From positions 277,822,001 to 277,886,000 of the forward strand of contig OZ024741.1 of NCBI GenBank assembly GCA_964016885.1: DNA of 64,000 bases, written 5' to 3'. Positions 9,637-31,106 of this stretch are shown in pieces. The stretch's first letter is position 1; each line of letters opens with the position of its first letter. The position numbers and the translations under genes are program-made. A model generated the notes under the pieces. That model was given only the letters and a program-made list of their open reading frames with translations. It had not been told where the DNA came from and made no database searches. This DNA comes from Eledone cirrhosa. Taxonomy: Eukaryota.

Positions 9637-9714
9637 ATGCTGAAGAGAATCGCATCCAGATTAGTTGTTGCTTTGAAGCCAAGAAAGATGCTGGAAGTAT
9701 TAACAACCAGCGAG
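9637..9714 (+). CDS. PUS1: PUS1 first coding exon (exon starts 9615): MLKRIASRLVVALKPRKMLEVLTTSE
   Basis: Acceptor tttacag at 9614, donor GAG|gtaaga, phase 0 and in frame with the next exon. Second in-frame ATG at 9688. Confidence 0.75.
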
Positions 9715-11009
9715 GTAAGAAAACAACAATATTTTATTTTATGCCAACTCATTTCATTTGAACACTTATCTGTTTTAGATTTTTTAACTACCTTATATAC
9801 TTGATTATAAGCCGACTCCTATTTTATGTCTAAGAAATAGCCCAAATTCCAAACCCCATTTATAAGCCAAGGCAGCTAATCAACAAATTATGTTTAGATG
9901 GTGCAGTTTTGAAATTCTCATGAATGGAGGATATATTTATGAAGTTTTAATGTTTTGATATTTAAAATGTTGTAAGTGTCATTTAGAGTATAGTTTTTGT
10001 CTTACAACTCCATTACGTAATTATTCTTTACCAATTTCTGACTGTTTTGAAGGCCATGTTCATTCAAAGCATCAAAAACAATAGGAGATACTAATTTCAT
10101 GTTAAAAGTGAAATAGTATATTCACCTCTAAATTGAAAATATTTTAGCACCTCATTTATGTAGAATTTTGAAATTGGGGAAAATTGGCAAAAATTGACCC
10201 CGAATATAAGCCACCCCAAGCCCTTCCATTTTACCGTTGATTTTTTTTTTTATTGTCACATATTTCTCTGCTTATATACAAGTAAATATGGTAACTAATC
10301 ACTGAACCAATGGTAGAGCCTGTATATAGTCTCTTGATATGCTTAATAGAAGTAATAATCATGTTTCTCACAAATCGCACCCTACAGTTAAAATAAAGGA
10401 CATACTGGATAATGTAATCCTAGATAGACTATGTCTGAATAAAAGATGTAGAGCTAAGACTTGACTGATTTTTGATCATAGGTGCTTGTCAAGCAACTCC
10501 ATTTTACCCTATCCTCCATATCCCCCTGCCACCATTTCTTCTTCCATCATATTTAGCCACATTTTTCTTGATCTTCCTCTTCATCTACTTCCTTCCACAC
10601 TCGTTTCCATCATTCCTCTTTCATACCCTGTCACTTTCATCCTTCCTCAACACATGACCCAACCATCTCATTTTATTTCTCTTCACAATATTCACTAGCT
10701 CTATTCCTCTTACCCAGTCACTTTCCTTCTTCAATACATGACCCAAACATCTCATTCCATTTCTCTACACAACATTCATCATGAGCTCTATTCCTTTCAC
10801 CCAGTCACTTTCATCCTTCCTCAACACATGACCCAACCATCCCATTCCATTTCTTTTCACATCATTCATTAGTGACTCTATACCCATCACCCTCTGCAAT
10901 CCATTATTTATCTTCCTCTCTCGCATTGATATTCCCCATAATAAATCATGACCCTTTCATTAATCTTTGTTATTTTATTTATTACCAAATATGTTTCTTG
11001 TATGTACAG

Positions 11010-11117
11010 ACTGCTGCTGCTGTGAAACCAGAAACTGATGACAAATCAGCAGTGAAGAGACAACACGATGATAACAACAGTGATGACAGTAACAAAACTC
11101 CTTCAAAGCTTCTTAAA
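11010..11117 (+). CDS. PUS1: PUS1 coding exon 2: TAAAVKPETDDKSAVKRQHDD...SKLLK
   Basis: cag| and |gtaagt boundaries, 108 nt, keeps frame. Confidence 0.8.
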
Positions 11118-11654
11118 GTAAGTATAGTCCAAGGTTAACACCTGCCACCCTGAGTTACCCCACCCCACTCCTCAGAACCACTTCCTTACTCAGTTGGATC
11201 AAGATGAAGATGGCCATCTGCAAGAATGAACCCCCACTAACTTGACTGGCTTTTTCAGCACATCTTTCCTTGTAGTACTAGGAATTCTTTTGTTTGAATC
11301 CTGGGCTAGATTTAAAAAATTATACACACATGCACACATGTATGTGTATGTATATACATATATATATCCCCCCCCCCCCCCACACACACACATATTTGTG
11401 TTTGTGTATATGGCTAACTGAATACACATGCTTTTTCTCAATTTTTTTTTTTCCGTTCTTTCCTCTTACTCTCTATCTTTCTATTTCCTCTTTTATTTCT
11501 CATTCTATCTTTTGATGAAGGACTAGTGTCTGAAACGTTAAGAATCTTTTCTTACTATATCAAGTGTTAAACTGATATATTTCTTCATAGTACTATGTTG
11601 TTTGCTTTGTTGTTTCTGTTTACTTTTTGCATACATATTTCTCTCTATCACCAG

Positions 11655-11749
11655 AAATCTGAGACTAACATTCCTATCCGAACTGATCGGAAGCGTAAAG
11701 TGGCGTTGTTAATGGCGTACTCTGGAGAAGGTTACTATGGCATCCAAGT
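11655..11749 (+). CDS. PUS1: PUS1 coding exon 3: KSETNIPIRTDRKRKVALLMAYSGEGYYGIQ
   Basis: Matches the TruA/Pus1 N-terminal motif KRKxxLLMAYSGxGYxGxQ. AG/GT boundaries. Confidence 0.93.
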
Positions 11750-12050
11750 GTGAGTAGACAGGCTAATAACTCTTTCTTATACATAACAATTTCCATTTCT
11801 TAGAGGGTTCTAAACCCCACTATGAGGTTAAAATTTCTTTAGTCAAAAAATACGGCGAAAGCTTCTATTTCTACTTCTTGTGTTGTTATGACTCAACCAT
11901 CTCATGTTGTTGTTGTTGTTGTGGTTGTGCCGATTGTGATTGTGGAATAAGTGGGCAAAGATAAGATATATTTTGAGATTTATATTATTAATTTTTGTTG
12001 ATTGTTTTCAAATGAAATCTTTACTTTTCTTTCTCCCAAACAACTTTTAG

Positions 12051-12144
12051 TAATTCTGATTTTCCAACAATTGAGAGTGAACTGTTTAAGGCATTAGTTG
12101 CAGTTGGACTGGTACCACAGGATCATGTAGATAACCCTTATAAG
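12051..12144 (+). CDS. PUS1: PUS1 coding exon 4: NSDFPTIESELFKALVAVGLVPQDHVDNPYK
   Basis: TIE..L..AL motif, and the phase matches both flanking exons. Confidence 0.92.
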
Positions 12145-12204
12145 GTAAATGTGTGTTTTTATATATATGTACGTGTATGGCACTCGCTCACTGAAGGGTG
12201 ACGC

Positions 12205-12530
12205 TCTCTCACCACTCAACATCTCCCTGAGCTAAGTCTCACTCTGATCAGGTCACTGCAACATTTCCTTGAGCTGTCTAAGTCTCACTCTGACCAGGTC
12301 ACCGTGTATAGATTCAGGCCATCTCTTACCACTCAGCAGAGACAGGCCTTCTCTTACCACTCAACATTTCCCTGAGCTGTCTAAGTCTCACTCTGATCAG
12401 CTCACTGCAATCAGGGACAGACCCTCTCTTATAGCTCAACATTTCTTTGAGCTAAGTGTTGCTCTGACCAGATCACTGACCAGGCACAGGCACTTTCTTA
12501 CTGCTAAATATCTTCCTGGGTTGTCTCTTA
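12205..12530. repeat. Degenerate tandem repeat
   Basis: Recurring CAACATTTCCCTGAGCT..AAGTCTCACTCTGATCAG.TCACTG. Confidence 0.75.
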
Positions 12531-12868
12531 GTTAATAGTAAATTGGACACAAACTGTGAACAGAGAAGTACACCATTTAAAATCCACATGTGCTTTACCC
12601 ACCCATTTCTCCTCACTTAAACCCGTTTGATAGCAAACTACCTGAAACCACCGTTCCATCATAAATTTGTGAAGAAATGTTTTAAATATCAGCTTACTAG
12701 TGAAAAAATAAGTTATTTTATTTTAAATTCCCCCAAATACTTGATTATTTTCAAAATTAATTACACATAAGTAGTGTATTTCATTAAAAATACAGTAATG
12801 AAAGGGTTAGCTACCCTTATGTTGTTAAACACTAACATCACGTTTTTTTTGTTTGTTTGCTTTCTCAG

Positions 12869-12937
12869 ATGTCATTCCAAAGAGCTGCCCGTACAGACAA
12901 GGGTGTTTCTGCAATGGGACAGGTTGTTTCATTAAAG
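12869..12937 (+). CDS. PUS1: PUS1 coding exon 5 with catalytic motif: MSFQRAARTDKGVSAMGQVVSLK
   Basis: RTDKGVSA motif containing the catalytic Asp of the TruA family. Followed by a non-canonical ATAAGT donor. Confidence 0.95.
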
Positions 12938-14065
12938 ATAAGTATCAGAAACGTCTTATCTTTATTTGTTGTTATTCTTTCCATCATCATTGTTTAACGT
13001 CTGTTTTTCCCCTACTAAGCAAGGGTTTGACGTGTTGTCATAGACCTGCCACCTGTCTGTACTCACATGAAGCCATTGAGCTCCAGGTGTGCTGGGGGAC
13101 ATACATCCCACATACATATATTCCCACGCTCTATCAATTGCTCCAACAGGCCGGGGGCCCGACATATGATCCCACACTTTACAGAGTACATTTTATCGTG
13201 GCATCAACACTAGTGAGGTTGTCATGTCCTTAACACAGCTGAAGACTTGGCATTTTGTTTGATTTTATAGCTTTTATTGTTATTTATTGTTTTACAGTAA
13301 TACTGTAATGAAGGTGTGCAATCTAGTATTTAGTGTTGAACTCAGTATCATAAAGTCGTATGTTCAATTCCTGGACCAAGCTGTGCATTCTGTGCTTGAG
13401 CAGATACTTCATTTCACATTACTTTCCATCATAGAACCGGCACCTCTATCATTAAAAGGCGTGAGAAACCTCCTATGAGATACAACCTCATGAAAGGCCA
13501 GTTAAACCTGCATAAGGTGTGGGCTGTAAATTTAATTTCATTTTGATACTGTTGATGCATGGCTTCTGTAGTTAAGAAGTTTGCTAACCATAAAAAACTT
13601 GCCAAATAGAGGTTTGAGAGCACTTTTCATTTGTGCCAAGAACATGACAACCCTTCCTAGTGTTGGTGACATAATAAAATGCACCTAGTACACTCTGTAA
13701 AGAGGTTGGTGATCGGAAGCACATCCAGATGTAGAAACCTTACAAAACTGGAACCTATGTAAGTGAGGTGTATTTACACTGTAAAGATGTAAGCAGTGGT
13801 TATCTTTCTTCTGAGGATTAAAAAACAATGAAATTTTCGGAAATTTCTAATTAAATTTTAGATGAAATTTTGGTGGAATTTTATATAAAAAATTGTTTTG
13901 AATTTTTCAACGGAATTTTTGGATTGAAGTTTTGAGAAAATTTTTTATGACATTTTTATAAATGTTTTGATGAAATGTTCTGAAAAATTTGAGAAAATTA
14001 ATTTAAGAACTGAATATTTTTTATGAAAACTTGCTTTATTGTTTAATGTTCTTTTTTTTTTCTAC
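12938..14065 (+). other. AT-AC intron with U2-type signals
   Basis: AAG|ATAAGT ... T-tract CTAC|ATG is the only join I found that keeps the frame and the SLK-xxx-L.IDRLN.LP..IRILG sequence. Confidence 0.8.
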
Positions 14066-14135
14066 ATGTTGTTAAATGTTGAGAATTTGATTGATCGACT
14101 CAATGAGACACTTCCAAAACAGATCAGAATCCTTG
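14066..14135 (+). CDS. PUS1: PUS1 coding exon 6: MLLNVENLIDRLNETLPKQIRIL(G)
   Basis: TruA LN..LP..IR motif, donor gtgagt, acceptor AC. Confidence 0.9.
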
Positions 14136-14456
14136 GTGAGTTGTTCTAGTTTTTTTTCTATCCTTGTAATTCTTTTAGGTTATCTTAAATCTATTATCCA
14201 ATAATTCCCCCCCTCTCTCTCTCTCTCCCCTCCTGACCCTTTGTTTGGCAAGCTTTCTACAACTTGGTGACCTCCCTTCACCAATCACTTTACAGAGTGT
14301 ATTGGGTGATTGTTTATCAAGTACATACCATCTACCATATGAAGTGTCACCAATCATTGTATCATCTGATTATACGCAGAGTTGTCATGGAAAATAGATA
14401 TGAAACAAAGATGATGATGATGATGAAAATTTGAGCTGGTAGTGAGTTAACTAATG

Positions 14457-14708
14457 AAGGCACATTGACCTAGTGGTAAGGGTATTGGACTTATGATCAT
14501 AATGTTCAATTCCTTGACTGAGCTGTGTGTGTTGTTCTTAAATAAAACACATCATTTCATGTTGCTCCAGTATACTCAGCTAAAAATGAGTACCAGCAAT
14601 AGCTGAGGATTTAGGCCTGCGATGGACTGGTATCCTGTCCAGAGGGAAGACTTGTTCTCTCAATCACTTCAGGAACCAAGATGAACCTCCAGGCTTGAAA
14701 CGGACTTT
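14457..14708 (+). mobile_element. tRNA-derived SINE family 2 (also at about 17568 and 39990)
   Basis: A-box-like TAGTGGT and B-box-like GTTCAATTCC, with a recurring body GTTGCTCCAGTATACTCAGCT...CCTGCGATGGACTGG. Confidence 0.75.
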
Positions 14709-14769
14709 AGTGAGTCAACTAGTATATCATATTAACCCTAATTAACTCTTATGTATTTCATCTTTGTAG

Positions 14770-14870
14770 GTCTGACACGTACGACAAATTCTTTCAACAG
14801 TAAGAATCATTGTTCCCATCGTACATACATCTATGTTATGCCAACATTTGCTCTGACTCCAGTAGAAGAG
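14770..14870 (+). CDS. PUS1: PUS1 coding exon 7: LTRTTNSFNSKNHCSHRTYIYVMPTFALTPVEE
   Basis: FNSKN.C..RTY.Y motif, AG/GT boundaries. Confidence 0.95.
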
Positions 14871-15734
14871 GTATGTATCTTGATAATTGCTTCTACAATA
14901 ACTTCTCTTTTTCTGTTTCAATAGTTGTTAGTTAAAACCTTTATCACTTCATTACTCTATCTCTAATGAAAGACACAGCCTATGATTTTCAAATAATTTT
15001 TAAAATAATCAAGAATTTGGAAAGATTTAGTAATATAACTAATTTTCTCATTATTTATCTAGTGTTTAGCAGGGTAGTCCTCGATATTTGATGAGATACA
15101 GAGAGCTGTTCATGAAAAAAAATCATCAGGAAAGTCAACTGTCAATACAACCATTTTACAATGGCAGTTGGCTTTCCTGATGATTTCTTTTGAATCAAAT
15201 AGTTGTAGTCCTATAGAAGCCATTTCTATATTACACATGATGTTTACACTCTACTAATGTAGATTACTCACAATTGAACCCGAGACTCACACACACACAT
15301 ATATATAGAGAGTACTCAATACTGAAGTAGAGTTTAAATATTCATTTATTGTGGCCAAGTAGTGAGTCTTGTTACTCCGGAGTTTCACCTGTGCACTCAT
15401 AGGATAGGTGAAACTCCAGAGTAACAAGACTCACTACTTAGCCATAATAAATGAATATATAAATATGCTAGCATGGAAAAATAGACATTAAACGTTGATG
15501 ATATATATATATATTGCTATCAAAGTAAGTGGACATTAAACGATGATGATGATGATATATATATATCATCGTTTAACATCCGTTTTCCCTGCTAACAAGG
15601 GTCAGTCTCCAATATATATATATATATATACATATGTATATATATATGTGTGTGTGTGTGTGTTGTTTTTATCTTGTATGTTTTATTTTTATGTCTAAAT
15701 TCTAATATATTTTGGTTCCTTTCTTCTATTCCAG

Positions 15735-15762
15735 AATGTTGTCTTAGATTATAGAATAGATG
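15735..15762 (+). CDS. PUS1: PUS1 28-nt micro-exon: NVVLDYRID
   Basis: ttccag| and |gtaagt boundaries. It is needed to convert phase 0 to phase 1 and supplies the YR motif. Confidence 0.85.
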
Positions 15763-16040
15763 GTAAGTTACCTGGGTATGTTACCCGTATATCTTTGAAT
15801 TGGAAGTCGGTAATGGTTGTTGTAGTGATAGTAATGATGATGGTGATGATAATGATATTGATTGTATGTTGGTGCAAATGGTGATGATGATGATAATGGC
15901 TGTGGTGCTAGTGATAGGGATGATAGTGAGTGTAGGTAGTGATGGTGATGGTGACGATAGTGGTGGTGGAGGGGTGATAGTAGTGCTGATGTTGATGTTG
16001 ATGATGCCTATCAAAGAATTCCAATTTTTCTATATTTCAG

Positions 16041-16119
16041 AAAGTAGGCTGGAACAACTGAATAAAGTTTTAAGTTTATTTAAAGGAACACATAATTTTC
16101 ATAATTTTACCTCTGGACG
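16041..16119 (+). CDS. PUS1: PUS1 coding exon 9: SRLEQLNKVLSLFKGTHNFHNFTSG
   Basis: GTHNFHNFT signature of Pus1. Confidence 0.96.
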
Positions 16120-16537
16120 GTAAGAAACTCTTTGTCTTCTTTCTTTTTTTCCCATCCTCTCACCCTTTCTCTTCTCATCTCTCTCTCACTTGTCTATCTC
16201 CTCTTACTCTCATTACTTTCGCCCTTTCTCTTCTCTTTCTCACTTGTCTATCTCCTCACAGCCACACAACTTTCACCTTTTCTCCTGTCCCTTCACCTCA
16301 ATCTATTGTTTCTCTTGTCCCTCTCTCTATCTCTTCTCTCTCACTTTCTTTCCTCTCACTTCCCCTTCACATTCAACCACTTTCTCTGCCATTTTTTCTT
16401 TATAAGTTTCTTACTACTACTACTAGTACCATTATCACATGTTGCTACTAATTGTTACTGTATAGTTGATAACATTACTGTTTGTTGCTATTTTCACCTC
16501 TCTTTTCTTTTCTCTCTCTCTCTTCCAATGTATTTAG

Positions 16538-16583
16538 GAAATTTTCTGACCCAAGTGCCAACCGCTACATCATGGAATTTAAG
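16538..16583 (+). CDS. PUS1: PUS1 coding exon 10: KFSDPSANRYIMEFK
   Basis: DPSA.RYI motif, phases fit. Confidence 0.92.
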
Positions 16584-16781
16584 GTAGGTTTCTTTCTCTA
16601 TTGATCTATCGATCTATCTCTATCTACCTTTCTCTCTCTCTCTCTTCAGTAACTGCAAGGAGAAGTATTTCCTCATTGATTATATACCAGTAATATACAT
16701 GGGTTGATTAAATTAATTATACATTCCTCCTCCCTTCCCTCCAAATGATTCACTTTGTGTGTCTCTATATATCTATGCATG

Positions 16782-16942
<161 letters not shown>

Positions 16943-17427
16943 TCATCATCACCATTTTACATCCATTCTTCCACGCTAGCATGGGTTAGACGGGTTGTCC
17001 TGTTGTGGGCAGTGTACAATCGGCTGCCCTTGTCTTGCTCATACTGGAACTGATTCTGGCTTGATTACTACAGCTGGATGCCCTTCCTAACACCAACCTC
17101 ATTTACAGTGAGTGCTGGCTGCTTTTTTGTCGTGGCACCTCCACGTCCACTTTGCAGTGGGAGGGTGTGGGGTCATATTGTCTATATGCTTCAGCTTTGG
17201 CTTGTACCCATGGGGGGGGGGGTCTTCTGTATTACTGCGTGATGCCAGAGGTCATGGTCGTGTATCATCACCTTTGAGAGGTGTAATATAATGTGTGTGT
17301 CTCTCACTCACTCACTCTCTATCTATCCATCCATCTCTATCTCTCTAATTCTATTTACCTACCTATCTATGTATATCTTGCTATCTATATATCTATGTTT
17401 CTCTATCTGTCTACCTATCTATCACAG

Positions 17428-17521
17428 GCAGGTAAACCAGTGGTCATTGATGGTCTGGAGTTGGTCACTATCAAGATTCAGGGTCAAAGTTTCATGTTGC
17501 ATCACATTCGTAAAATGATAG
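17428..17521 (+). CDS. PUS1: PUS1 coding exon 11: AGKPVVIDGLELVTIKIQGQSFMLHHIRKMI
   Basis: GQSFMLHxIRKM motif. Confidence 0.96.
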
Positions 17522-18487
17522 GTATGTCAAATACTATATAATTACATGTAATATAAATACAAATGTGGAGGCATATGGCTTAGTGGTAAGGGTGTTGGAC
17601 TTATGATAATGACGTTGGCTTTATTCCTGGACTGGGTTGTGTGTTGTGTTCATTTCATTTCACAGTGTTCCACTGTACTCTGCTGAAAATGAGTACCTTC
17701 AATACCTGGGATTTACTCCTGCCGTGGACCAGTGTTCTGTCCAGGGGAAAGTCTTGTATTCTCAGTCACTTAACACCACAGAAACAAGGATAAGCACAAG
17801 GCTGATGAGCCTCCGGGCTCAAGACAGACTTTACATTTTAGAATATAAATACAAAGTAAATGTGGTGAAAAACTGGAGACTACAGTGTTTGGCACATGGT
17901 TAATGTAAGGTCTGAGAAGACTCTTCAATTTGGCCTAGCATCTAACAACTTCCCTAGTGCCAGTGCCATGAAATAACACACCCAATAAGTACATCCTGTA
18001 CAGTGTTAGTGTTGGTACCATGAAAACTTGTACTTAGTATATCCTGTAAAGTGTTGATATTGGTGCCATGAAAAAATGTACTCAGTACACTCTGTAAAGT
18101 GGTAGCATAGTTCCATGATAAAAATGCATCATATAAGGTGGTTGGCATTAGGAAGGACATCCAGCCATAGAAACCATGCCAAATATGGAACATATGAGCA
18201 AGACAGGTTAATCCAGCCAAACATGGTAACAAAAGTGTTCAAGTGTTTATATTTATGTAAAAACCTTCCATGTAAGAACCTTCGATAATTCCAAACACCA
18301 ACTTAATAGTGAGAAAGTTAGTTATATTACTGAATCCTAAATTCTTGATTATTTTCATGATTTATTGAAATATATCAAGTGTATTTCATTAGACATATAG
18401 CAATGAAAAGGTTAATTTGCCACTCCAGAATTTTGAACACTCCATCACCATATTGACTTAACATTGATTTCCTCTTGTATTATCCAG

Positions 18488-18558
18488 GTTTATCAATCGC
18501 CATTGTTCGAGGATTTTGTGGAACAGATGTCATTGATCTATCATGGAAAGCTGAGAAA
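18488..18558 (+). CDS. PUS1: PUS1 coding exon 12: LSIAIVRGFCGTDVIDLSWKAEK
   Basis: AG/GT boundaries, in frame, Pus1-like AIVRG...SW. Confidence 0.9.
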
Positions 18559-20003
18559 GTAAGTTATGCTTGTTGTTGTTGTTGTTTAGACTCAAGTCAG
18601 CCCCTTGATTGAGCAGATATCTCATCAAAGGTGTTCCAACCATGACCATCCCATTATTTTTGTATATCAGGGACTACACTGTTCATTGTAGCTGTCCTTT
18701 CTATTTATTTGTTTATAAAAATGCACCCGGCCTACCCTGTAAAGTGATAGTGCTGGTGCTATGATAAAAATGCACCCAGCCCACAGTATCTTTACTAGTG
18801 GACAAATCATGAAAATTAACAATATTAGAGTAAAGATTTTTATTTTTAATACAATGTAGTCATAGTGCCTGTTCTGTAATTTTAAAGAATGTTTTGCTAA
18901 TGTGGTACAGAACAGCCTACTTGCTATATTAAAATGTATTTGGCTGAGTATACCATGGACATGTTTACATACTTTTAAAGTCATTCTTGGGAAAATTAGT
19001 CCTTTGAATCACAGGTACAGTCCATCTGGCAGGCTTCCACATAGTTTCTGTCTACACAATTTCAGTCACAAGACTCTGACAAAAGATGCCACATGATGGG
19101 GTCAAACCCATTACCTCATAATTCCAAAGCATACTTCTTAACCATTTGATCATGCTGCATCTATGGGTATGGGAGGAAAATGCATAGAAATAAAGGAGAA
19201 CATTTTTTTTAGTGAAATTTTGTATATTTGAATGTTAGTGTTGGATTAAATACTTTGGTATTTATTTAGGTTTTCTATGCTCAGTGCTCTATTCCCTCTG
19301 AGGTTAACTTTGCTTTTCATCCTTTTGTGATTGATAAATGAAAGCAGCAGTCCAGAGGATGGTGGATTGGTAGAATTGCTAAAGAGACAGATGTGATGCT
19401 TTGCAATCTCTTCCAGTCCTGTGTGTGTTCTGAGTTCAAATCTTACTGCCTGTCACCAGAAAAGTGGTGACACTTTTGCCAGTGATTGCCACTGACAGAT
19501 AGTATCAGCAATGAAAAGACAAATGGAAACACTATTTCATTGGTTTGATCTGACAATCGGCTCCTATCTTCTTTCATTTTCCATGCTAGCATGGGTTAGA
19601 CGATGTGCGTGTACAAAAAGTAAACAGAAATAACAAAGCAAACAACACAGTACAATGAAGAAATATATTAGTTGAATGCTTGATATTATAGGAAAAGATT
19701 CTTTACGGTTCAGACACTAGTCCTTCATCAGAAGATAGAATGAGAAATAAAAGATACAATAGAAAGATAGAGTGAGAAGAGAAACTTTTTTTTTTTTAAA
19801 CCCTGTGTATTTAGTCAGCCATTTCATGTGTTTGTGTGTCTGTACATATGAACATAGCTTCCTATAGGACTTACCACTGGCAGATAGTATTAGCAATGGA
19901 AAGACAAATGGAAACATTGTTTCCTTAGTCTGATCTGACAATGTTCTTTTCCTTGCCTTTCTTTGATTGAATTGTTAAAATATTTTCTAATTTTCCTTTA
20001 CAG

Positions 20004-20048
20004 GTGGATGTTCCCAAAGCACCTGGACTGGGCCTTGTTTTAGAGAGG
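20004..20048 (+). CDS. PUS1: PUS1 coding exon 13: VDVPKAPGLGLVLER
   Basis: PKAPGLGL.L motif. Confidence 0.95.
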
Positions 20049-20967
20049 GTACAGTAAAGATTTTATTGGATATTTTTATATTTCTTGCTTGTTTCTTTCC
20101 AGTTATTTTGTGGAAGTGTGTACATTAGGAAAAAATATCAATAAAACAATAGTAATATATTTCACTATAAATATTAATTGAGAAAATCAGGTAAAATACA
20201 CCTGGTGACAGAAGTGATTGACTTATATTATGGTCATTTGTCTTGGGATACACACATTTCAAATTTTCCCAATGCTCCTGGATCCTTTAGCGTTTACATT
20301 ACTCTATATTTACTATTGAATTTTCACAGTAAACACTTTATCTCACATAATATCGAATCTACGAGATTTTGATATTATTTATTTTGAGAACAATACTTTC
20401 ACATAAGTATGAGCAACCAGTTTGAACAGAAAGAGGTGAGAGAATTCTGGCTGGATATGGCCAGTTTAAATGTTAAAGGGTTAAGTCAGCCGCTTTGTAA
20501 ATAAAAATAACCATGGTTTTTAATGTAAATAGAAGACAAACATTTTAGAGAGTCAGGTGTAATTGATGATACTTTGGTGTTTGGATGTATAACATTGGTC
20601 AGTGAATTTAGGGACCTCATGTGATGCGTGTACACAGTGTATGGCTGTGTAACATTGGTCATTGAATTTAGGGGACTACGTGGGATGTGTGTGTAACATG
20701 GTGTGGCTCAGCTACACAGTCAGTAAATGTAGATGATTACATGTAATGTATGTGACTGTTACACAGGCAGTAAATGTAGGGGACTACATATAATGTGTGT
20801 ACACAGTGATAGTATGTTGTGTTACATAGTCATATATTGAGATGTGAACCACTGGAGTTGAATGTCTGATGAAACAATGAAGAGTGTAATGTCTGAAACA
20901 CTGATGTGATGTAATGTTTGATGAAACTGGTATAATTTAATATCCTGTCTTGTCATCTTTCTTTCAG

Positions 20968-21042
20968 TTACATTATAATGGTTACAATAAACGGTTTGGT
21001 AATGATGGCATCCATGAACCTTTAGTGTGGGATAAATATGAT
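20968..21042 (+). CDS. PUS1: PUS1 coding exon 14: LHYNGYNKRFGNDGIHEPLVWDKYD
   Basis: YN.RFGNDG.HEPL.W motif of animal PUS1. Confidence 0.95.
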
Positions 21043-21739
21043 GTAAGTATGACCTTAATGTAATGTTATTGACCCTTGTAATTATTATAACATCAGCTTA
21101 ATAATGAGACAGTTATGTCATCATCATCATCATCATCATACATCCACTTTCCTCACTGGCATGGGTTGGAAAGGTGGCCCCAGTCCAAAGCCAGATGGGT
21201 TGGAACAACCTTATCTCACTCGTACATTCCAGGATGCCCTTCCTAATACCAACCACCCTGCAGGGTCTACAGGATGCTTTTTTTTCATGATACCACCACT
21301 GACTGTTACTTTACAAAGTGTAGTGGGAGGATTGGCTGCATTTTATTGTGGCACCATCTCTAGAGTAGTGTTATGGGATTGGATCCAAGGCCTCACAACC
21401 CTCTCCAACACCTTATAGCCAGCAGCATTGACCCTTTGGAAGAAGTGGAGAAGCATAACCATTGGAACATCATTAGGGTCTCTACATAACCATCTGTCAT
21501 ATGTTTGTCTAGATTGAAGAGTCCTGTCAAACTCTGTATTGTCTCTATTCAATTGTATTCAATGCAGTAGAAATATATAAAGGGCAAAGGATGACAAATA
21601 AAACAAAACAAAGCAATGTTTTTCTTACCCAGTATAGTTTCCTTGGTCCAATCTGACAATCTCACCCACCACCACACACACACACCTTTTTTTTTTTTTG
21701 TAATATTTTGTTGTTTATATTCCCTGTGTTGTGTTTCAG

Positions 21740-21810
21740 GAGCAAATGGAGAAGTTTAAAGAAGAATATATCATGAAAAACATTGTGGAAAAGGAGAAGG
21801 AGGAGAAATC
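21740..21810 (+). CDS. PUS1: PUS1 coding exon 15: EQMEKFKEEYIMKNIVEKEKEEK(S)
   Basis: FKEE.I motif. Ends in phase 2 at a U12-type donor. Confidence 0.92.
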
Positions 21811-21819
21811 GTATCCTTT
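21811..21819 (+). promoter_or_regulatory. U12-type (minor spliceosome) 5' splice site GTATCCTTT
   Basis: Exact match to the RTATCCTTT consensus at the exon end. Confidence 0.92.
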
Positions 21820-22751
21820 GACATCTTTGGTTTGAATGGTGACTAAAATATAGGCATCATCATTGAGTTGAATAAGTCGTTACAGGCCAGGTCACTATGT
21901 AATCAGTCACTGTCCTCTTAGATGAGCCAGTGGCTATGTTTGAGTTGAGGGTTACATCTGAGCTAGGGGGCTCATATCTCACATACATTACCAACTACTT
22001 TACAGAGTGTACTGGGTGTAATTTTTGTGACACCAGCACTAAGGAGGTTGCCAAGTCTTTGATACAAATGAAAACCCATGCTAGCGTGGAAGATGGACGT
22101 TAAACGAAGATGATGATGAAGTCCTCTTAACTCTTTGTTTGATATGGTTTCTACATCTAGATGCCCTTACTAGTGCCAATTCCTTTACAGAGTGTACTGG
22201 GTGCATTTTAATTAGGTACCAGCACTAGAAAAACCTCTCATTAAAATGTTATAATGATGATGATGATATAAAGTAGTTGATGAAAAAGAGTGTCCCTAGT
22301 GGTTGTTGTTCAATCTAATTGAACCTTTACTAGGAAGCTGACTTATTAATTACATTCCAGTAAAATATCTAGAACTTCATTGTTCTTTCTGACACATGAC
22401 CTGTGAGGAATAACAGTTAAGTCTCCCTCATATCACACCTTACTGTCTTAAAATATCAGATGCCACCTCAGTTTTTTTTGCAGGATGATTTTTTGGGTGT
22501 AGTTCATTGTGTATAGTGGGTGAGTAAGGGAGATAACTCTACTGGCAGCATGTCCAATAATCATATTGAGCAAATCCTTTTGTATTTTTCTTAACAACAC
22601 TTGGAAAGAAAATTTTTCACAAATTACTGAGAAATATTTGACAGAAAAATCAATAGTATAATGGGTGACAGCTTATATTCGAGGTCAATATTTTGCCGAT
22701 TTTCACCGACTTCAAATTCTGTATAAATAAGTTGCTAAAATATTTTCGCTT

Positions 22752-24236
22752 TGGAGGTGAATATTACACTAGTTTCACTTTGTTTATGAATATTACACTG
22801 GTTTTACTTTGTGGTGAATATTACACCAGTTTCACTTTGGTGGTGAATATTACACTGGTTTCACTTTGGTGGTGAATATTACACAGGTTTTACTTTGGAG
22901 GTGAATATTACACTGGTTTCATTTTATAGGTGAATATTACACTGGTTTCATTTTATAGGTGAATATTACACAGGTTTTACTTTGGTGGTGAATATTACAC
23001 TGGTTTTACTTTGGAGGTGAATATTACACTGGTTTTACTTTGGAGGTGAATATTACACCAGTTTCACTTTGGTGGTGAATATTACACTGGTTTTACTTTG
23101 GTGGTGAATATTACACAGGTTTTACTTTGGAGGTGAATATTACACAGGTTTTACTTTGGTGGTGAATATTACACTGGTTTTACTTTGGTGGTGAATATTA
23201 CACAGGTTTTACTTTGGAGGTGAATATTACACTGGTTTTACTTTGGTGGTGAATATTACACAGGTTTCACTTTGGTGGTGAATATTACACAGGTTTCACT
23301 TTGGTGGTGAATATTACGCAGGTTTCACTTTGGTGGTGAATATTACACTGATTTCATTTTATAGGTGAATATTACACTGGTTTCATTTTATAGGTGAATA
23401 TTACACAGGTTTTACTTTGGAGGTGAATATTACACAGGTTTTACTTTGGAGGTGAATATTACACTGGTTTTACTTTGGAAGTGAATATTACACTGGTTTT
23501 ACTTTGGAAGTGAATATTACACTGGTTTTACTTTGGAAGTGAATATTACACCAGTTTCACTTTGGTGGTGACTATTACACTGGTTTTACTTCGGTGGTGA
23601 ATATTACACGGGTTTTACTTTGGAGGTAAATATTACACTGGTTTTACTTTGGAAGTGAATATTACACTGGTTTTACTTTGGAAGTGAATATTACACCAGT
23701 TTCACTTTGGAGGTGAATATTACACTGGTTTTACTTCGGTGGTGAATATTACACGGGTTTTACTTTGGAGGTAAATATTACACTGGTTTTACTTTGGAAG
23801 TGAATATTACACTGGTTTTACTTTGGAAGTGACTATACACAGGTTTTACTTTGGAGGTAAATATTACACTGGTTTTACTTTGGAAGTGAATATTACACTA
23901 GTTTCACTTCGGTGGTGAATATTACACAGGTTTCACTTTGGAAGTGAATATTACACTGGTTTTACTTTGGAAGTGAATATTACACTGGTTTTACTTTGGA
24001 AGTGACTATACACAGGTTTTACTTTGGAAGTGAATATTACACTGGTTTTACTTTGGAGGTAAATATTACACTAGTTTCACTTCGGTGGTGAATATTACAC
24101 TGATTTCATTTTATAGGTGAATATACACAGGTTTTACTTTGGAGGTGAATATTACACTGATTTTATTTTGGTGGTGAATATTACACCGGTTTCACTTTGG
24201 AGGTGAATATTACACTGGATTCAGTTTGGTGGTGAA
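22752..24236. repeat. 29-bp minisatellite, about 50 copies (GGWGGTGAATATTACACTGGTTTTACTTT)
   Basis: Directly visible tandem array with point variants and no spacers. Confidence 0.97.
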
Positions 24237-24519
24237 ATTTGTTTTTCATATTGTTTTTGATGTTTTGAGTGAATATGGCCTTCGAAACGACCAGAAATCA
24301 ACAAAAAAATCATTACATAATGAAGTTGTGAAACAAAAACTATACTCTAAACCAGGGGTTCTCAACCTTTTTTTTGCTGTGGACCACCAAAATAAGTAAT
24401 TTTTGCCTGTGGACCACCTAAATTTTAAATCTTTTGTAATAGAACTGCTAGAGACATTCTAACCACATGCCCATAGTATCAGAGCTGTGAACTCGAAATT
24501 TTCAAATATAATGGACACG

Positions 24520-24880
24520 TAGATTAGAGAGAAACGAAGCCTGCATGCTCCGATGGATGTGTAACAGTAATATACGTGAACGACAAAGCATAAAGGAATT
24601 GAGAGAGAGACTGAGCATAAGAGGAATCAAATGCTGCGTGCAGGAGAGGCGGTTACGCTGGTATGGACATGTGATGCGTATGAAGGATGACAGCTGCATA
24701 AAAAGGTGCAGAGCACTAGAAGTTGATGGAAACTGCGGAGTGGGGAGACCCAAGATGACTTGGGATGAGGTGATAAAAGCCGACCTTACCCAACTACACC
24801 TCTCAAAGTCAATGACACACGACCGTGACTTCTGGCGTCACGCAGTAATACAGGGTACCCGACCTCCCATGGGTACATGC
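24520..24880 (+). mobile_element. RTE-clade LINE 3' fragment
   Basis: RRLRWYGHVMRM...GRPKMTW C-terminal motif typical of RTE ORFs. Confidence 0.9.
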
Positions 24881-25452
24881 TGAAGCATATAAACAATATC
24901 TTCTTAAATATGTTCTCCACTCATGAGAATTTCAAAACTGCATCATCTAAACATAATTTGTTGATTAGCTTCCTCAGCTTATACACAGGGTTTGGATTTT
25001 TGCCTATTTCTCAGACATATAAGGGAGGGGGTGATTATATTCAAGTATATATGGTAATTTCTGTATTTGCTGGCATTGTGGTGTGTCTCAATTTTGAGTT
25101 GCTAAATTGTGAAAATTTAAGTTTAGGCTTATGAATAAACTAATGTTCGGCCTTCAAGACACAAGGTAAATCTTCCAAGCTTTTTTTTTTTCAAGTGGTG
25201 GGGGGGGGGGGGGGGGTACTGTCTTCCTCACTGGGAAATATGGTGGGTTTTGTTAGCAACACAAAACTAATAAATATACAATCAACCCTAACATAGAACC
25301 TTCCTCATAACTGACTCACATGTGTGTCGGTATGTATGTGTCTGTATATCTGTGCCTCAATATGTGTGTGTATCTGCCTGAATGTACGTGTGTCTGTGGT
25401 GCAATGTTTAGTTACTGAATTAGTCCATCTTTTCTCCTATTAGTATATTATA

Positions 25453-25461
25453 TTCCTTAAC
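25453..25461 (+). promoter_or_regulatory. U12 branch point A (TTCCTTAAC)
   Basis: Perfect consensus, with the AG ending at 25476. Confidence 0.88.
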
Positions 25462-25476
25462 TCTATATTCTCTCAG

Positions 25477-25621
25477 CCTCTTCAAGTGGTTGCCCTGCCT
25501 CCACCACAATGTATACAAGGCCCACCCAGGGCCCATAGCTCGCACATCTCGACTACATTACACCATGCGGAAACTGAAAAAGATAGAACAAGCAGAATTA
25601 GATGTTGCACAGCCAGCTTAG
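25477..25621 (+). CDS. PUS1: PUS1 alternative terminal exon A: LFKWLPCLHHNVYKAHPGPIARTSRLHYTMRKLKKIEQAELDVAQPA*
   Basis: Phase-2 compatible open frame with a WL..LH motif. AATAAA at about 25763. Confidence 0.78.
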
Positions 25622-28173: not shown

Positions 28174-28182
28174 TTCCTTAAG
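28174..28182 (+). promoter_or_regulatory. U12-like branch point B (TTCCTTAAG)
   Basis: 8/9 match to the consensus, with the AG ending at 28192. Confidence 0.75.
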
Positions 28183-28192
28183 AAGCTTCTAG

Positions 28193-28325
28193 AATGCTCA
28201 ATTGGCTTGTGACATTACACAACCACACATTTGGCTATGTGGATGAGGAAGGTGAAAGACAACCTACAGGTGCCTGTGTAGCACAGATGAAGCTGAAGAA
28301 AGCAGAAAAGGAATCTCTGAATAAT
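28193..28325 (+). CDS. PUS1: PUS1 alternative exon B: MLNWLVTLHNHTFGYVDEEGERQPTGACVAQMKLKKAEKESLNN
   Basis: Phase-2 compatible. SM..WL.TL..H.F resembles the vertebrate PUS1 C-terminal helix as I recall it. Donor gtaagt at 28326. Confidence 0.85.
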
Positions 28326-30899: not shown

Positions 30900-31106
30900 G
30901 CACCAGCAGAAGCTAACGAAAATACTGTGACCAACACAACCAGCAGTGATGTAACAGATACTACTACTACTACTACAGACCATACTGCCACCTCTACTAC
31001 TACTACTACTGCAATCGCCACTGATACCATGGAAACTACTACAGCCACCACCACCACCACTGAAGATGATAAAGTTGTGGAAAAAGTTGCTACATCGGTC
31101 CAATAA
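30900..31106 (+). CDS. PUS1: PUS1 terminal exon for isoform B: Thr-rich acidic tail APAEANENTVTN...EDDKVVEKVATSVQ*
   Basis: ttcttcag| acceptor, phase 0, 69 open codons including the stop. AATAAA at about 31128. Confidence 0.7.
   Translation, partial: APAEANENTVTNTTSSDVTDTTTTTTDHTATSTTTTTAIATDTMETTTATTTTTEDDKVVEKVATSVQ

Follow-up and report, generated by a model that had tools for sequence, protein, structure and literature searches.

An AT-AC intron with U2-type splice signals beside the catalytic exon of PUS1, in Eledone cirrhosa and other animals

Does PUS1 contain, right next to its active-site exon, an intron that opens with AT and closes with AC, and if so, which spliceosome removes it and since when? 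The question was raised by a stretch of 64,000 nucleotides of the Eledone cirrhosa genome (GenBank assembly GCA_964016885.1, contig OZ024741.1; hereafter the window, whose positions are used below for this species). AT-AC introns with major-type signals (type II AT-AC introns) are very rare and come mostly from one gene family: five genomes, with some 610,000 introns in total, yielded 24 of them (Sheth et al. 2006, PMC1557818). The original prediction described the class as known from the voltage-gated sodium channel genes. Its view of the class and of its rarity stands, but the attribution was too narrow, as Sheth et al. also list TAF2, whose intron is conserved between human and fly.

Gene model of PUS1 and the ends of intron 5

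The gene, its intron 5, and the two adjoining exons are placed as follows.

9637 to 25621, forward strand: coding sequence of PUS1 (tRNA pseudouridine synthase 1), 16 exons, 422 aa with the terminal exon 16a
12869 to 12937, forward strand: exon 5, 69 nt, with the catalytic RTD motif and the final Lys codon AAG
12938 to 14065, forward strand: intron 5, AT-AC, 1128 nt, phase 0, U2-type signals
14066 to 14135, forward strand: exon 6, 70 nt, first codon ATG

With AT-AC ends for intron 5, the 16 coding exons yield a single frame of 422 aa, with an identity of 89% to PUS1 of Octopus sinensis and 91% to that of O. bimaculoides, and with no gap at the intron-5 junction in either alignment. The protein is orthologous to PUS1 (TruA family) and carries the catalytic motif; exon 5, which contains it, matches human PUS1 chains in PDB. 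Across the junction, the spacing of residues is that of most mollusc and annelid homologues (122 proteins compared). The intron ends are GT-AG in 14 of the 15 introns, intron 5 being the exception. The ends originally predicted, AAG/ATAAGT after exon 5 (which ends at 12937) and CTAC/ATG before exon 6 (which starts at 14066), are exact to the base. Elsewhere in the gene, the donor of intron 13 (20049-20058) is weak, with 4/11 matches to the U1 consensus, and a second GT lies six bases further on, followed by a stop.

Such ends could also result from an assembly error, or the true splice path could use a nearby GT-AG pair or a hidden micro-exon. Open frames are indeed obtained when the GTs at 12923, 12926, or 12953 are joined to the AG at 14082-14083, an in-frame AG inside exon 6 that gene finders can misuse. 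The claim that this exon has no usable AG therefore needs rewording: the AG exists, but the spliced contig described below rules out its use. For the GT at 12942, none of the three AGs in the vicinity restores the frame, as predicted, and it comes into frame only when exon 6 is skipped. Against these paths, the GT-AG pairs in question delete or replace residues whose normal spacing is preserved by nearly all 122 homologues.

We compared four of eight listed sequencing runs (X1, X2, X4, and X5) over positions 11600-15000. X1 and X2 share a sample, and the assembly may have been built from them, which leaves some room for an error common to both. The genomic reads nevertheless bear out the two ends: 0 other letters are carried by the X1 DNA contig that spans the donor (12780-13244) and by the DNA contigs of X1 and X2 that span the acceptor (13677-14258). 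A contig of the related-species run X5 spans the donor, with no difference at 12938 among the matches listed, in which no acceptor contig appears.

Indirect evidence for the splice junction comes from X4, a run with the same species label from a different sample, whose library type is not on record. Its contig 17 (1185 nt, depth 39.1) skips introns 3, 4, and 6; exons 3, 4, and 7 are the pieces listed for this contig, and it covers exon 5 at 12889-12919 with the same depth of 39.1. Between exons 4 and 7 it has 140 unlisted letters, which is the number expected from AT-AC splicing and is given by no single GT-AG or GC-AG pair. The depth of X4 in the bin 13994-14107 is 14.4, equivalent to 42 bases at 39.1, which puts the first base of exon 6 at 14066; applied to exon 7, this calculation returns its known 79 bases. 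GT-AG pairs ending at 14083 were tried and rejected, since they predict 107-137 nt and a depth of 8.2 where 140 nt and 14.4 are observed. Intron 5 is excised at its AT and AC ends, a result that is exact but indirect and comes from one contig of one run. The depth of X4 is 0 in the unique parts of the intron, a value obtained on contigs, which cannot measure retention. As the length and depth of the RNA contig exclude the GT-AG pairs, and as miscalls would be needed at both ends in dozens of independent assemblies, we give next to no credence to an assembly error or a concealed canonical path.

Splice signals of intron 5 and the U12 intron of the same gene

The signals of intron 5 are the following.

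12935 to 12945, forward strand: 5' splice site AAG/ATAAGTAT, 9/11 matches to the U1-pairing consensus and 4/9 to the U12 donor
12942 to 12943, forward strand: GT at +5/+6 of intron 5, the start position of the arthropod-type intron
14043 to 14047, forward strand: candidate U2-type branch site TTAAT, with its putative A at -20
14048 to 14065, forward strand: pyrimidine tract and YAC acceptor, 0.88 pyrimidine in -20 to -4

Donors were scored against an 11-nt U1-pairing string. The U12 and U2 consensus motifs were those of a figure legend in PMC6259924. With 9/11 matches, the donor of intron 5 is level with the best GT donors of PUS1; apart from +1 it fits the U2 consensus and has the +5 G, in terms of a match count and not of a SpliceRack matrix score. 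The 3' end is free of AG for the last 58 nt, the last AG lying 60 nt upstream of the acceptor.

Most AT-AC introns are of U12 type (353 versus 24 in five genomes, Table 1 of PMC1557818), and minor introns exist in E. cirrhosa, one of them in PUS1 itself, which speaks for the minor (U12) spliceosome removing intron 5 even though the consensus has diverged. The intron does resemble U12-type AT-AC introns in its terminal dinucleotides and YAC acceptor. Unlike them, it has neither the ATATCCTTT donor nor the TTCCTTRAC branch point, and it has a long pyrimidine tract and an AG at the end of the exon. The U12 donor and branch point are absent, in agreement with the original prediction: the donor matches at 4/9 positions and the best branch-point match in the last 45 nt at only 6/9, as opposed to 9/9 and 9/9 in intron 15. 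Considering also that none of the 28 groups of orthologous introns described below has a U12 donor, and that -1 G and +5 G are invariant among them, removal by the minor spliceosome is very unlikely.

The features of the U12 intron and of its second acceptor are given below.

21811 to 25476, forward strand: intron 15, GT-AG, U12-type, donor 9/9, branch point 9/9 at 25453-25461
28193 to 28325, forward strand: alternative exon 16b, with a second U12-type acceptor, branch point 8/9 at 28174-28182

PUS1 carries, as anticipated, both a GT-AG U12 intron (21811-25476) and an AT-AC intron with U2-type signals. Intron 15 is an internal control, showing that U12 signals are not diverged in the E. cirrhosa genome. 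Its single donor (21811) serves two U12-type acceptors, 25476 leading to exon 16a and 28192 leading to exon 16b. More precisely, exon 16a matches isoform X2 of O. sinensis and exon 16b matches isoform X1 (P0121). The two exons are weakly alike, with a score reached by 4 of 2000 shuffles, which suggests that an exon, and the U12 3' splice site belonging to it, may have been duplicated. Exon 16b runs on to a further exon at 30900. The U12 intron contains, at 22749-24236, a tandem array of some 51 copies of a 29-nt unit.

Orthologous introns and their variants across animals

Vertebrate PUS1 is not known to have an intron at the exon 5/6 boundary. We scanned metagenome contigs for the codons of exon 5, ending in Lys (AAR), followed by RTRWS, a pattern open to U2-type and U12-type donors alike, whether they start with GT or with AT; it loosely fixes positions -3 to +5 (AAR, RTRWS), so that weak GT donors are invisible to it. 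The scan returned 64 loci. Both intron ends were found in 41 of them: 38 are AT-AC, 3 are AT-AA, and none is GT-AG. The other 23 comprise 11 loci with an AT donor and no next exon, 2 with a shifted intron, the locus L003, and 9 that are read through in frame or are unresolved. The 41 complete introns, among which one annelid clade dominates, correspond to 28 distinct junction peptides (hereafter groups). Twenty-eight distinct junction sequences thus share these ends and this codon boundary, more than expected by chance, and the comparison of orthologues supports the prediction.

The signals of these introns are those of intron 5. GT at +1 was found in 0 of the 64 loci, although the scan pattern permitted it. 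Position +5, which the pattern left free, is G in 52/52 AT donors and never the U12-type C. In front of the donor, Lys is encoded by AAG in 52/52 loci with an AT donor versus 2/11 loci lacking the intron, AAA being allowed; a preference for G at -1 marks U1 pairing (Moyer et al., PMC7367187). Matches to the U12 donor range from 3 to 6 out of 9, and those to the branch point reach at most 7/9, across all 28 groups. No orthologue with U12 signals occurs among the 64 loci, though the pattern admitted RTATC.

We placed 25 loci together with 39 reference proteins in a FastTree tree, based on partial sequences of one gene. Two AT-AC loci (L017 and L033) group with bivalves (support 0.999), eight with Helobdella (0.976), and one (L053) with octocorals (1.0). 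Six more, with introns of 59-220 nt, fall in an unnamed clade outside Bilateria, which may be sponge-like. In this clade, two contigs each carry two tandem PUS1 copies, both AT-AC (L019/L020 and L051/L052). Reading frames that run from the intron into exon 6 tell the same story for the acceptor, with His or Tyr before exon 6 in 8/8 informative non-arthropod ORFs, as a YAC acceptor gives; 9 further ones start at Met and are uninformative in this respect. In L053 and L039/L050, the AC acceptor is preceded by an AG three bases upstream, which forms a tandem AG/AC choice; this AG is apparently used by one Paramuricea gene model.

The locus L003 (minus strand, near 567-619) lies outside animals in the tree and is presumably fungal-like. 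An AT donor stands at the corresponding codon boundary of this locus; the exon after it is disrupted in all frames, and no acceptor was located. If this donor is real, the intron would be older than animals. In scans of viral contigs and prokaryotic genomes, all hits were either TruA-like genes of archaea or bacteria or matches due to chance. The loci seen at the DNA level include no deuterostome, nematode, ctenophore, or resolved non-animal intron. Within this sample, and as far as sequences can tell, intron 5 is an old animal feature with two variants and not an octopus oddity.

The first variant has AT-AA ends and a U2-type donor, and is found in L013 (2849-3555), L029 (563-770), and L061, the first two of which are placed with Acropora (0.959). 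All three have TAA directly before the ATG of exon 6 and a putative branch site, CTAAC, at -27/-28; their last AG is located 38-41 nt upstream. With TAA at the end of the intron, an upstream in-frame acceptor would meet a stop. The junction is intact in the Acropora RefSeq protein and in three coral-like proteins, which indirectly indicates that the AT-AA introns are spliced in coral-like PUS1. Sheth et al. (PMC1557818) list AT-AA ends only among U12 introns, and Larue and Roy (PMC10639083) give them as the commonest non-canonical ends of minor introns; the former point counts in favour of the minor spliceosome, discussed above.

RNA editing is heavy in cephalopods, and A-to-I editing would make the donor A resemble G, so that the intron would be read as canonical. 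The editing of splice sites has been documented for human AT-AG and GT-AA introns (PMC4176328), and both ends of the coral-like AT-AA introns are editable in principle. For AT-AA introns, and for these only, double A-to-I editing may be an alternative. An AC acceptor, however, is not editable to AG, and AT-AC ends are common to 38 loci that include non-cephalopods, which makes editing an extremely improbable explanation of intron 5.

The second variant is a GT-AG intron in phase 1, located 4 nt downstream of the AT-AC site, in L004 (469-1795, 1327 nt) and L011 (2127-2188, 62 nt). Both loci group with a crustacean-like protein inside arthropods (0.993). The two positions are mutually exclusive: the intron is in phase 0 in 41 loci and shifted by 4 nt in L004 and L011. 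The position of the new donor is that of +5/+6 of the AT donor, which is GT in 25 of the 28 groups and GC in the other 3. At the other end, exon 6 starts with ATGN in 28/28 groups, and 9 of them are one substitution away from an AG at +3/+4, the matching acceptor; none of the 28 groups has a cryptic acceptor AG at this position.

A further 29 arthropod-like ORFs read from the intron into exon 6, 5 of them too short to be informative. Ala is found in 10/10 insect-like ORFs of this kind, against Pro in 9/9 spliced relatives with the same spacing, and Val in 5/5 copepod-like ones, against Leu in the 2 spliced relatives. Such changes from Pro to Ala and from Leu to Val are expected if codon 2 has its first base replaced by the G of the acceptor. 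The remaining 9 agree with the spacing of L011, to which they were assigned after the fact.

The simplest reading of these sequences is that the intron slid by 4 nt onto the GT hidden in the AT donor, which would be an escape from the AT-AC state. Alternatively, the intron may have been lost and another one gained nearby; L022, which belongs to the arthropod clade, has no intron at the exon 5/6 site. Intron sliding is at most very rare according to PMC10639083; Lehmann et al. (2010, PMC2891723) describe it as more common and mostly in steps of three. Since 4 nt is not a multiple of three, both ends of the intron must move together. As in the near intron pairs of the latter study, the two PUS1 positions are less than 32 nt apart, never occur together in the loci seen, and have a cryptic splice site exactly at the new donor; unlike in those pairs, as described there, the PUS1 move also switches the class of ends from AT-AC to GT-AG. 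At such an age, no sequence similarity is expectable between the AT-AC introns and those at +4.

Origin, persistence, and annotation

Taken as a whole, the data make it very probable that intron 5 is a constitutive type II AT-AC intron, removed by the major spliceosome and present since an early animal ancestor, at least that of cnidarians and bilaterians. We infer all three of its removal by the major spliceosome, its age, and the reason for its persistence. It is an unusually old new case within a known rare class. In line with the SCN4A/SCN5A and TAF2 introns (PMC1557818), it has AT-AC ends, a major-type donor, and a +5 G, and is kept in orthologues; PUS1 also hosts a U12 intron, as the sodium channel genes do. 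Unlike these introns, that of PUS1 reaches cnidarians and the unnamed non-bilaterian clade, and has an AT-AA variant. The dependence on U2 was tested for SCN4A/SCN5A, while for PUS1 intron 5 it is suggested by the signals. A search of titles and of the first lines of abstracts, subscription journals and supplements being outside its scope, found no publication on an AT-AC intron in PUS1, and the name PUS1 is absent from the main text of the papers on splice sites and intron evolution that we checked; intron databases may nevertheless include this intron without comment.

In the mechanism that we propose, U1 and U6 would recognise the donor by its match to the major consensus, near-perfect apart from +1 (-1 G, +3 A/G, +4 A, +5 G, +6 T), and U2 would use an ordinary branch site. 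The A at the first position and the C at the last would form a compatible pair in place of the customary two Gs; the strong context of the donor would offset the A at +1, with which the terminal C would pair. A rescue by such A/C ends in yeast and human is cited by Sheth et al. (PMC1557818). The intron would then persist because a change limited to one end breaks the A/C pair, and does so next to the exon with the catalytic motif. This corresponds to the "trap" described by Lin et al. (2010, PMC2831892), according to whom AT-AC U2 introns derive from U12 AT-AC introns and are then trapped. Such a trap fits the conservation of the PUS1 intron, whose donor has the +4 A, +5 G, and +6 T predicted for trapped introns. 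Two aspects depart from the model as laid out by Lin et al.: an orthologue with U12 signals occurs in 0/28 PUS1 groups, which speaks neither for nor against a U12 origin, and an exit by a 4-nt move to an internal GT, the arthropod state, is not considered there.

A trap accounts for persistence with no need for a function. The intron could instead be a weak regulatory one under selection, which would limit, as the original prediction supposed, or tune the output of PUS1, possibly by feedback, and would be compatible with the major-spliceosome explanation. Apart from the long persistence of an AT-AC intron in PUS1, this idea draws on the lower efficiency of A/C rescue relative to GT-AG (PMC1557818) and on the activity of Pus1, which makes pseudouridine 44 of U2 snRNA in yeast and can make pseudouridine 43 in human (PMC7960923). 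The U2 sites modified by Pus1 are near the branch-site helix, and the GT at +5 permits an in-frame skip of exon 6. Yet arthropod-like PUS1 genes manage without an AT-AC intron, and we regard selection for regulation as unlikely. A wider account is possible, although we lean slightly against it: the AT-AC U2 intron would have stood beside the active-site exon of PUS1 since the origin of animals, the AT-AA ends of stony corals and the 4-nt slide to GT-AG of arthropods would be two exits from the trap, and elsewhere the intron might act as a feedback sensor of U2 snRNA modification. A single PUS1 site offers a natural series across animals, with AT-AC, AT-AA, and GT-AG four bases away. This makes two questions testable: do AT-AC introns serve a purpose that keeps them, or are they only trapped, and can introns slide by distances that are not multiples of three?

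The original prediction that automated annotation is likely wrong at this intron was only partly borne out: RefSeq PUS1 is intact in two Octopus species, while five other models are broken at the junction or lack the preceding exon (P0019, P0044, P0125, P0140, and P0146). The Sinanodonta model misses 10 residues across it; the models of Plakobranchus, Stylophora, and one Paramuricea lack the catalytic stretch up to or just past it; and that of Oculina begins at the Met of exon 6. Broken models make up 2 of the 122 proteins of the homologue set and 3 of the 9 named cnidarian proteins. Intron 5 is the probable cause of these errors, which recur and leave PUS1 with a missing or truncated catalytic motif in the gene sets of some invertebrates. 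The Nematostella model P0193, left out of this count, has Ile-Ser after the Lys, as given by reading through the AT donor.
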